In this document: positions 12,001-15,000 of the stretch, piece by piece
Position numbering within the stretch: position 1 is the first letter of the stretch
Layout: every line of letters begins with the position of its first letter
Assembly (NCBI RefSeq): GCF_041886205.1
Contig: NZ_CP169029.1
DNA: 64,000 bases
Source of the DNA: Escherichia coli
GTDB lineage: Bacteria > Pseudomonadota > Gammaproteobacteria > Enterobacterales > Enterobacteriaceae
Strand: one strand, 5' to 3'
Program-made: the position numbers

Positions 12001-15000
12001 CAGCGGATATCTGTTACGTACCGGTGCGTGGTCGTACCCGGTTCTGCGACTTAAACGGCTGGGCCTGTCAAAAACGTTCCGTCGTCTGGTTGTCACACTT
12101 ACCCGACGTTATGGCGTCAGTCTCATTCATCTGGATGCCGGTGCTGAATGTCTGCCGGGTTTACCCACTTTCGACTGGTAATCCGGAACTTCACAACATG
12201 AAATCATTAACCACGGAAACAGCGCTGGATATTCTGATTGCGTGGCTGCAGGACAATATTGACTGCGAATCGGAAATTATCTTTGACAACGATGAGGATA
12301 AAACGGATTCGGCAGCACTGCTGCCCTGCATTGAACAGGCCAGGGAAGATATCCGTACCCTGCGCCAACTGCGGCTTCTGCACCTGAACCGGTGAGTTTT
12401 ACTCATCATCTCATTCACCATACTTCATTCCCCCGACGCCAGCCTGAATACGGCTGGCGTTTTCGTTTATAAACCAAAAGGGAAACCGATAATGTCAGAC
12501 ATCACAATCTCCCGTCCGGAAGTGGTCACCGGGCATACGGACGTTATTTGCTCAACCTCAGTCAGCCACATTCTGGCTGTGCGAAAGACCACACTGCTGC
12601 AAATCGACACACTTATCCGGCAACTGGCTGAAATTTCAGTACTGACGGAAAGTATTGGCGGTAAAACCGCACTGGACTGGGCGATGAAACAGGATTTTCG
12701 CTGCGGTTGCTGGCTGATGGAAAAGCCGGAAACCGCAATGAAAGCCATCACACGGAATCTTGACCGCGAAATCTGGCGTGACCTGGTGCAACGCTCAGGG
12801 ATGCTGAGTCTGATGGATGCGCAGGCACGTGACACATGGTACCGGTCACTGGAATACGATAACTATCCGGAAATCAGTGAAGCGAACATTCTGAGCACAT
12901 TTAAACAACTGCACCAGAACAAGAATGAGGTATTTGAGCGAGGGGTCATCAACGTCTTCAGGGGACTGAGCTGGAATTACAAAACTAATCGTCCCTGCAA
13001 ATTTGGCAGTAAAATTATCGTCAACAATCTGGTAAGGTGGGACCATAGATTTCATCTTATCACCGGACAACAGGCTGACCGGGTTGCCGACCTGGAAAGA
13101 ATGTTGCATCTGTTCAGTGGCAAACCAGTCCCCGATTGCAGGGAAAACATCATCATTCATCTGGATGACCACATTCAGTCCGCTCAGGGTCAGGAGTGCT
13201 ATGAAGATGAGATGTTCAGCATCAGATACTTTAAGAAGGGTTCCGCGCACATCACATTCAGGAAGCCAGAACTGGTTGACAGGCTGAATGACATTATTGC
13301 AAAACGTTATGCGGGAAAAGTCCCCTCTTCAGTATAAACTTACACGCATCACAGTCCTGAGTCTCGTCCGGAACAAGACTGGCAGGTATATTGCGTTCGC
13401 TGAGCCATTAATGATAATGCCTCAACTGAGTTCAATATACCTCCATGTACAACAACTGTGCTTTGGGGGCTACATTGGGGGCTATATTTTTCAGACAAAA
13501 GAGCCTATATCAATTTAAACAATGAGATAAAGAAATCTCGCCATTCCCCTCTGGGGAGAGGATTAGGGTGAGGGGCGCAAACCCGCTCCGGGGCCATTAA
13601 TTACCCTGAATTTGATTATTTACACCACGGTAACAGGAACAACATATGCAGTTTGACTGGAGTGCTATCTGGCCTGCCATTCCGCTTCTGATTGAAGGTG
13701 CCAAAATGACCCTGTGGATCTCGGTCCTCGGTCTGGCTGGCGGCCTGGTGATCGGATTGCTGGCAGGTTTTGCACGCACCTTCGGTGGTTGGATAGCCAA
13801 CCACGTCGCGCTGGTCTTTATTGAAGTGATCCGCGGCACACCTATCGTCGTCCAGGTGATGTTTATCTATTTCGCCCTGCCGATGGCGTTTAACGACTTA
13901 CGCATCGACCCATTTACTGCGGCGGTGGTCACCATCATGATCAACTCCGGCGCATACATTGCGGAAATCACGCGTGGTGCGGTGCTGTCTATTCACAAAG
14001 GTTTTCGTGAAGCAGGACTGGCGCTCGGTCTTTCACGTTGGGAAACCATTCGCTACGTCATTTTACCGCTGGCACTGCGTCGTATGCTGCCGCCGCTGGG
14101 TAACCAGTGGATCATCAGCATTAAAGACACCTCGCTGTTTATTGTGATCGGCGTGGCGGAACTGACCCGTCAGGGGCAAGAAATTATTGCCGGTAACTTC
14201 CGCGCCCTTGAGATCTGGAGCGCCGTGGCGGTGTTCTATCTGATTATTACCCTGGTGCTGAGCTTTATTTTGCGTCGTCTGGAAAGAAGGATGAAAATCC
14301 TGTGATTGAATTTAAAAACGTCTCCAAGCATTTTGGTCCAACCCAGGTGCTGCACAATATCGATTTGAACATTGCTCAGGGCGAAGTCGTGGTGATTATC
14401 GGGCCGTCCGGTTCCGGTAAATCGACCCTGCTGCGCTGCATCAACAAACTGGAAGAAATCACCTCCGGCGATCTGATTGTCGATGGCCTGAAGGTTAACG
14501 ATCCGAAAGTTGACGAGCGCCTGATTCGCCAGGAAGCGGGTATGGTGTTCCAGCAGTTTTACCTCTTCCCGCATCTGACGGCGCTGGAAAACGTCATGTT
14601 TGGCCCGTTACGCGTGCGTGGCGCGAACAAAGAAGAGGCGGAAAAACTGGCGCGTGAGCTGCTGGCGAAAGTCGGTCTGGCAGAACGTGCACATCACTAC
14701 CCTTCCGAACTTTCTGGTGGTCAACAGCAGCGTGTGGCGATCGCCCGCGCGCTGGCGGTGAAGCCGAAAATGATGCTGTTTGATGAACCGACTTCCGCTC
14801 TTGACCCGGAACTGCGCCATGAAGTGCTGAAGGTTATGCAGGATCTGGCTGAAGAAGGGATGACGATGGTGATCGTGACCCACGAAATCGGTTTTGCCGA
14901 GAAAGTAGCTTCGCGCCTGATCTTTATCGACAAAGGCCGGATTGCGGAAGATGGCGATCCGCAGGTGTTGATCAAGAACCCGCCGAGCCAGCGCTTACAG

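Follow-up and report, generated by a model that had tools for sequence, protein, structure and literature searches.

This analysis concerns the junction between a genomic island and the glutamine transporter gene glnP in Escherichia coli. It is found in a stretch of 64,000 nucleotides (assembly GCF_041886205.1, contig NZ_CP169029.1), which is called the window here and from which all positions are counted. The 308 nt at 13338-13645 are the sole non-coding stretch from the last island gene, coding for a DUF4942 protein, to the glnP ATG (13646), as was recognized in an earlier reading made from the sequence alone (here the sequence-only reading). We consider it very likely that 13338-13600 is an attR, P-O-B' in the lambda convention, of an island that was integrated by a tyrosine integrase of the P4/lambda type, and that the target was hairpin 1 of a BoxC-like repeat between glnH and glnP. 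A tyrosine-integrase attR is an ordinary kind of object; what is unusual is the target, which is a dispersed BoxC repeat used at several loci. The features around the junction are as follows.

12492-13337, + strand: last island gene, DUF4942 protein (Pfam DUF4942, E=1.7e-65)
13338-13544, + strand: island tail, the P arm of the putative attR; homologues of 80-87% identity in about 90 of 5426 genomes
13439-13456, + strand: conserved block ACCTCCATGTACAACAAC, near-invariant in five P arms (1 variable position)
13464-13475, + strand: arm repeat 1, TGGGGGCTACAT, a probable arm-type integrase site, at -81 from the core in 5/5 attR
13476-13487, + strand: arm repeat 2, TGGGGGCTATAT, at -69 from the core in 5/5 attR
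13488-13544, + strand: AT-rich spacer of 57 bp, 70-77% A+T, diverged in sequence and fixed in length
13545-13558, no strand: core (crossover) segment TCCCCTCTGGGGAG, that is TCCCC-TCT-GGGGAG, from alignments and junction tables
13553-13575, + strand: B' arm, purine blocks 2 and 3, GGGGAGAGGA-TTA-GGGTGAGGGG, from comparison with the TMECO consensus
13572-13589, + strand: native hairpin 2, GGGGCG-CAAACC-CGCTCC, in RNA folds of both the native site and the window; left unaltered by the insertion
13646-15024, + strand: glnP (13646-14305) and glnQ (14302-15024), from open reading frames (ORFs) and the annotation of homologous loci

The island-chromosome junction

The region 13338-13645 (308 nt) was used as the megablast query against 5,426 complete E. 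coli genomes, which form the comparison set throughout. The GC-rich segment from 13545 reads TCCCCTCTGGGGAGAGGATTAGGGTGAGGGGCGCAAACCCGCTCCGGGG, and the element spans 13545-13593. The sequence-only reading described a GC-rich imperfect palindrome here; it is present, and is better described as a set of hairpins and purine blocks, namely a mini-hairpin TCCCC-TCT-GGGGA (13545-13557), the purine blocks GGGGAGAGGA (13553-13562) and GGGTGAGGGG (13566-13575), and a second hairpin of 6 bp (GGGGCG/CGCTCC, 13572-13589). The sequence at 13545-13645 is found in 5,420 of the 5,426 genomes, with an identity of at least 97% in all but about 19 of them, and from 13545 to the glnP ATG it is 100% identical to the empty glnH-glnP site of the island-free O157:H16 strain Santai (locus L012). 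The gln site is intact in 5,402 of the genomes. Judged by its sequence, the element is the native glnH-glnP intergenic copy of the BoxC/PIT/TMECO intrastrand triplex-motif repeat, slightly degenerate, and is not a product of the island.

It had been suggested that the tandem repeat and the palindrome may mark a recombination junction. The junction does lie in this region and the tandem repeat belongs to the machinery by which the island recombines, but the palindrome is native (5,420/5,426) and was not created by the island; that this native element is the target of the island was not recognized in the sequence-only reading. Identical sequence at the native junction of island-free strains had been named as the observation that would speak against the idea, and because the GC-rich element is native, this is what is found for that part.

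To our knowledge, BoxC/TMECO is a dispersed E. coli repeat that has been known for about 30 years without an assigned function; Bachellier et al. in 1999 is said to be the source on the BoxC repeats of E. coli. For the 66-nt gln element, the median number of similar places in an E. coli genome is 15. When compared with the TMECO consensus, CCCTCNCCC-N3-6-GGGNGAGGG-N3-GGGNGAGGG, the empty gln site has one substitution in K-12 and O157:H16 and two in phylogroup B2, and is slightly degenerate, with an A at the end of block 2. Three substitutions are needed to match the window, where blocks 2 and 3 alone remain. The gln copy is not among the 23 TMECO copies listed for MG1655 (Holder et al., 2015; PMC4666352).

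In K-12-like strains the glnH-glnP gap is 138 nt long and reads ...GCAGTTCCCTCTCCCC-TAT-GGGGAGAGGATTAGGGTGAGGGGCGCAAACCCGCTCCGGGGCC..., and its counterpart in the window reads ...CGCCATTCCCC-TCT-GGGGAGAGGATTAGGG.... In an alignment with K-12, island sequence gives way to chromosomal sequence within hairpin 1 of the native repeat, because the TCT context of the window departs there from the TAT sequence of K-12. Among island-free strains the loop is TAT (K-12), TCT (O157:H16 Santai) or GCC (phylogroup B2). Both the island-derived and the chromosomal sequence contain the core, and the relatives carry it a second time at attL; the core pattern, TCCCCNNNGGGGA, occurs once in the window, with 0.02 occurrences expected by chance. 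When the left side of attL is joined to the right side of attR, the exact empty gln site is obtained, and the repaired attB would read GCAGTTCCCTCTCCCCTCTGGGGAGAGGATTAGGG. The same reconstruction at the fabI, zntA and gcvP sites also gives a shared short core flanked by chromosomal halves.

Probable arm repeats and the integrase

The 12-mer TGGGGGCTACAT (13464-13475) directly abuts TGGGGGCTATAT (13476-13487), and the two are identical in 11 of 12 positions. This is the tandem repeat of the sequence-only reading, which placed it one base too early; its actual start is 13464. The pair gives the only two matches to the pattern TGGGGGCTAYAT (at most one mismatch) in the 64 kb window. Two or more matches were obtained in 10 of 100 shuffles, meaning that the count alone is not significant. 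The pair is significant because its position and sequence are conserved across diverged tails. In an alignment of five diverged island tails, the window's own included, it is found exactly at -81/-69 from the core in all five. The mean pairwise ungapped identity is 90% in the repeats, as against 52% (minimum 30%) in the 57-bp spacer, which has no indels among the five variants. The AT-rich spacer is a candidate bend region similar to those of integration host factor (IHF). The IHF consensus (at most one mismatch) is present in the spacer, at -28, in only two of the five tails, so that no IHF site is assigned.

Homologues of the tail (13338-13544), with 80-87% identity in about 90 genomes, are always 3' of a DUF4942 gene and end at TCCCC-NNN-GGGGAG. 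The whole 308 nt is found in only 18 of the 5,426 genomes, with an identity of at most 87%. The genes before the tail form a CP4-like terminal module (GTPase, DUF932, antirestriction, RadC, CbeA/CbtA toxin-antitoxin, DUF5983, DUF957 and lastly DUF4942), which in its generic form is present in 5,002 of the 5,426 genomes at about 91% identity. Homology to this generic module stops at about 13304, and the tail homologues always reach the att core; the tail is therefore specific to one att/integrase type.

The conserved block and the two 12-mers make up a module of about 56 bp, which is directly repeated in the P' arm of relatives. The P and P' modules are identical in 36-40 of 56 positions, and follow the pattern TCCATG-N-ACA-N-CAA-N6-TTTGGGGGCTA-N3-TGGGGGCTA; GGGGGCTA is a sequence element belonging to this arm-repeat region (13439-13487, and the attL pair). 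It is concluded that the 12-mer pair belongs to the island and is part of its recombination machinery, and that the 12-mers are probably arm-type integrase sites.

The visible part of the island in the window is 13.3 kb long, with the integrase end beyond the window's left edge, and in every relative examined a tyrosine integrase adjoins the other junction. In ECCNB12-2 the order is glnH, CCCTCTCCCC-TCT-GGGGAG/GATCTATT (the slash marking the junction), about 125 nt, TGGGGGCTATTC TGGGGGCTACAT, and int (397 aa); beyond int follow about 27 kb, the DUF4942 gene, the tail, TTCCCC-TCT-GGGGAG and glnP. The repeat region of this attL reads ...TTTTGGGGGCTATTCTGGGGGCTACATTTCAGGGGTAACTC-ATG, where the ATG opens the 397-aa tyrosine integrase. 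Its domains are Arm-DNA-bind_3 (E=2.2e-28), Phage_int_M and Phage_integrase. The sequence-only reading suggested looking for the repeat at the other end of the island as well; in every relative examined the 12-mer pair is found there, near int. It lies at +142/+154 or +152/+164, which is 15-38 nt upstream of the int ATG. The P' arms differ by exactly 10 bp in length between integrase clades (repeats at +152/+164 in loci L008 and L010, and at +142/+154 in L007 and L009), and this difference, of about one helical turn, is consistent with a phasing constraint.

Integrase clades and sites were compared in a sample of the 99 integrase places in 90 genomes. There are four integrase clades in these 90 of the 5,426 genomes, with nucleotide identities to the ECCNB12-2 int of 99-100%, 91%, 84% and 79.5% (98.5% to 81% at the protein level), and all have the common core and the repeats at -81/-69 in attR. 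The nearest phage integrases are only 41-43% identical to the integrase of the relatives, so no known att site can be transferred, and NCBIfam gave a generic integrase domain only, below its cut-off. No plasmid-borne copies of the integrase were found in the search of the 5,426 genomes. In species-representative contigs the attL signature TCCCCNNNGGGGAGGATYTATT gave only two matches, both in unrelated metagenome-assembled genomes (Flavobacteriales and Anaerolineae) and presumably due to chance, and the integrase/att family is therefore not traced outside E. coli.

The protein that binds the 12-mers, the positions of the strand cuts and the mobility of the island we infer from these comparisons as follows. 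The catalytic and core-binding domains of the integrase would act on the short inverted repeat CCCC-TNT-GGGG, while its N-terminal arm-binding domain would bind the tandem TGGGGGCTAYNN pairs, one per arm, with the AT-rich spacer of fixed length letting the arm fold back to the core. As the comparisons show, recombination between the island's attP and a chromosomal BoxC leaves a core of 13-14 bp at both ends of the island, and splits the BoxC such that pyrimidine block 1 stays by glnH, and purine blocks 2 and 3 and hairpin 2 stay by glnP. The P' pair before the int ATG may also permit autoregulation of int.

Other target loci and known systems

A strain with an intact gln site that nevertheless carries a gln-type integrase led to the finding of several loci. 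The integrase WP_072648864.1 (100% identical, with an identical P' arm) is found at four loci, in islands of about 99-116 kb:

GF60: left flank glnH; tail 116 kb downstream, with the attR flank outside the sequence retrieved
strain 135: left flank ycjD; right flank fabI
HCM-27C-1: left flank zntA; right flank tusA
TUM9803: left flank gcvP; right flank ygfF

In strain 135, HCM-27C-1 and TUM9803, where both flanks were read, the flanking genes are native neighbours. Near-identical tails abut frlR in GPEC1040 and yjgR in CM2 (attR alone was inspected at these two sites), and the PK-F-10122 island is located at fabI. At the BoxC sites examined, attL always reads CCCTCNCCCC-TNT-GGGGAG/GATCTATT, with CGCTCC in the pyrimidine block of the zntA copy, and attR always reads CACCAT/TCCCC-TNT-GGGGAG-AGG(G/A)TTAGGGTGAGGGG, with TAAGGGG in one copy. 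The orientation with respect to BoxC is constant, int being beside the pyrimidine block. The reconstructed targets equal TMECO #9 and #16, and #11 with one substitution (PMC4666352, Table 1). On the zntA side in HCM-27C-1 (locus L016, 2491-2510), the pyrimidine block is CCCTCGCTCC instead of CCCTCGCCCC: either a mismatch at the third base to the left of the loop is compatible with core function, or there was a mutation after integration.

Clades c and d are found in ulaE, in CTCCCC-GCC/GCT-GGGGAG within codons 15-20, and in opposite orientations. The reconstructed ulaE site is 100% identical to island-free genomes, and is intact in 5,350 of the 5,426. Because the ula-type insertion is within its codons, ulaE is probably inactivated or expressed as a chimera. 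In PK8276 (locus L003, 4167-5018) and at locus L009 (1447-1512) the downstream part of ulaE is annotated as a full-length UlaE, with 13 island-derived N-terminal codons and a non-canonical ATA start.

Given that close relatives of the island occupy at least five other BoxC copies, the BoxC repeat appears to be a multi-copy landing pad for the island. That one element is present at four to six loci speaks indirectly for its mobility. We lean towards the wider view that BoxC/TMECO is a multi-copy attB family for a P4-type integrase moving islands of about 27-116 kb, papGII pathogenicity islands (PAIs) included. The more distant clades use the palindrome within ulaE in either orientation, and if the wider view is true, the integrase needs little beyond CCCC-NNN-GGGGAG; so small a requirement would provide roughly ten alternative landing sites in any genome.

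The site resembles lambda/P4-type att sites: the integrase has an arm-binding N-terminal domain and its gene lies beside attL, a short core is present at either end, and both arms carry direct repeats, with an AT-rich spacer of fixed length separating the arm sites from the core. As in P4, whose Int autoregulates, the P' repeats extend over the stretch directly before int. The site differs from them in its target, a dispersed repeat and neither a tRNA/tmRNA gene nor a unique gene end; in its core, a short near-perfect palindrome; in having one tandem pair per arm with a 12-bp period; and in its integrase, which is 41-43% identical to the nearest phage integrases. Dispersed palindromic repeats are also the targets of IS1397/ISKpn1 and IS110-family elements in REP/BIME, and of Neisseria filamentous prophages in dRS3 repeats. 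These likewise use a multi-copy intergenic palindrome with several sites per genome, but they are small insertion sequence (IS) elements or phages, with DDE or Piv/IS110-type transposases, whereas the elements described here are islands of about 27-116 kb, moved by a tyrosine integrase that has arm sites.

The integration of PAIs at 'gln' and 'ula' is already known at gene level. The main text of Biggel et al. (2020; PMC7686366) gives six integration sites of papGII PAIs, including 'gln: glnP-glnH' and 'ula: ulaE-ulaD', with site-specific integrases, and the glnH/glnP site is mentioned in the main text of Royer et al. (2021; PMC8097792). The loci and the use of site-specific integrases are the same as here. 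However, in the main text of both papers the sites are defined by flanking genes only, and the att core, the arm repeats, the palindrome and the relation to BoxC are absent from it. The literature search covered open-access papers, and in these we found no published att anatomy for the gln or ula sites, and no link of BoxC/TMECO to integrases or attB. The gln island of SCU-387 is a papGII PAI carrying papGII and ireA, which fits the 'gln' PAI site (PMC7686366). By contrast, the visible 13.3 kb of the island in the window is without pap genes, and its tail is a distinct variant.

When SCU-387 was inspected for a tandem island array, a single island was found, with internal attP absent. In its attR P arm (locus L005, 1684-3935) an IS21-family element, ISEc10, is inserted behind the DUF4942 gene and ahead of the conserved block and the arm repeats, which may immobilise the papGII island. 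The gln island of Br_112_kylling (locus L004 compared to H112) has its integrase/attL end at 2.57 Mb and its attR-glnP end at 4.20 Mb, 1.6 Mb apart and in opposite orientation, which points to a large inversion of the chromosome that has one of its ends within the island.

The empty gln element is like BoxC/PIT/TMECO in that it fits the three-block consensus with one substitution and is dispersed, multi-copy and intergenic; at the other target sites the sequence is that of a listed TMECO copy. The TMECO loci were noted as hypervariable by Holder et al. (2015; PMC4666352), who report never having found integrases or transposases near TMECO; against that statement, the element is here the target of an integrase.

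Alternative explanations and consequences for glnPQ

Several observations weigh against an attR formed by integration into BoxC, or limit how far it can be described. The loop base (TCT, TTT, TAT or GCC) is the same in attL and attR within each strain, the TTT site included, so that the contributions of attP and attB are inseparable and the positions of strand exchange cannot be mapped. The tail in the window is at most 87% identical to any tail in the 5,426 genomes, and is a distinct new variant; since in addition the window does not reach the left end of the island, attL and the integrase are deduced from relatives. The assignments at frlR and yjgR were made from attR only, and no binding, excision or integration experiments on this integrase family were found in the open-access literature. 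Finally, the protein bound by the 12-mers could be an accessory one and not Int.

Such a protein might be an AlpA/Xis-type recombination directionality factor, or one that regulates the transcription of int. The lambda Xis sites are likewise tandem direct repeats in the P arm, the attL repeats are 15-38 nt before the int start codon, which is a place for a regulator, and the islands encode small helix-turn-helix regulators. We nevertheless think it unlikely, in that the pair is present in both arms, like Int arm-type sites, whereas Xis-type sites are found in one arm only; the integrase has a dedicated arm-binding domain, and the two arms share no other conserved repeat family. It is hardly credible that the 12-mers are a functionless slippage duplication, with the island having arrived by illegitimate or homologous recombination and not by site-specific integration. 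There are indeed only two copies in the window, and the shuffle test is non-significant. Against this, the repeats are conserved across five tails that have just 52% spacer identity, there is a second pair in attL, and the empty site is rebuilt precisely at seven loci, with native neighbours on both sides.

The sequence-only reading also suggested that the GC-rich structure and the repeat may form a terminator or attenuator governing glnPQ; taken as a structure created at the junction, this is very unlikely. The island does sever glnPQ from the glnH promoters, and two stable hairpins are predicted for the native element, with stems of 9 bp (hairpin 1) and 6 bp (hairpin 2) and a total of -32 kcal/mol over 71 nt, of which hairpin 2 survives in the window. 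However, the element is native and near-universal, which contradicts its creation by the island, and the insertion creates no structure and weakens hairpin 1, which is reduced to 5-6 bp. The hairpins are real, but the 71-nt folds are no better than shuffles (z = -1.3 native, z = -0.5 in the window), and a 206-nt fold with z = -2.1 is dominated by the native hairpins. A consensus scan of 13000-14000 gave no terminator-like site and no plus-strand promoter. There is no U-run after either hairpin, hairpin 2 being followed by GGGGCCAUUAAUUACC, and the Rfam covariance models (scan span 12000-15500, E up to 1) gave no match in 13338-13645. PIT/BoxC elements are moreover reported to show no promoter or terminator activity (Holder et al., 2015; PMC4666352).

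Other features of the window were observed in passing. Inside the island, a 376-aa ORF at 4729-5859 (- strand) in a patch of 35% GC is without a Pfam match, as are the ORFs at 723-1160 and 1661-2251. In the glnQ-ybiO intergenic region, 15104-15165 gave a sub-threshold Rfam match to naRNA4, a REP-derived nucleoid-associated RNA (34 bits, compared to a gathering score of 59.5), and is probably an ordinary REP element. ARAGORN placed a tRNA-Ser(GCT) at 25864-25948 (- strand) inside a 762-aa ORF (25544-27832, at the dinG position); this call is probably a false positive. A low-GC islet (27978-31980, 30-35% GC), flanked by the dinG-like and rhlE-like genes, has two large divergent ORFs. One codes for 670 aa and matches a SopA-like catalytic domain, of a HECT-type E3 ligase effector (E=7.7e-15), and the other is of 561 aa and without a Pfam match; ECCNB12-2 has a RelE-type toxin pair at this position instead.

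The island parts glnPQ from the glnH promoters by at least 13.5 kb here, and by 27-116 kb in relatives. The glutamine transporter operon is split, and glnPQ are cut off from the nitrogen-regulated glnH promoters. The ORFs at 6044-13337 are all co-oriented with glnP, and a terminator is not predicted here. Most likely, glnPQ would therefore be transcribed by read-through from the co-oriented terminal island genes, and they probably depend on such read-through from the toxin-antitoxin/DUF4942 module.

Site-specific integration into BoxC provides a base-level anatomy for the 'gln' and 'ula' PAI sites, which have so far been named by their flanking genes. It would also give the BoxC/PIT/TMECO repeats a concrete use, as attachment sites of a tyrosine integrase. 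If BoxC/TMECO is indeed a multi-copy attB family, part of the 'genomic instability' at TMECO loci would be site-specific integration and excision, and several more landing sites per genome are predicted for virulence islands (papGII, ireA, sit).

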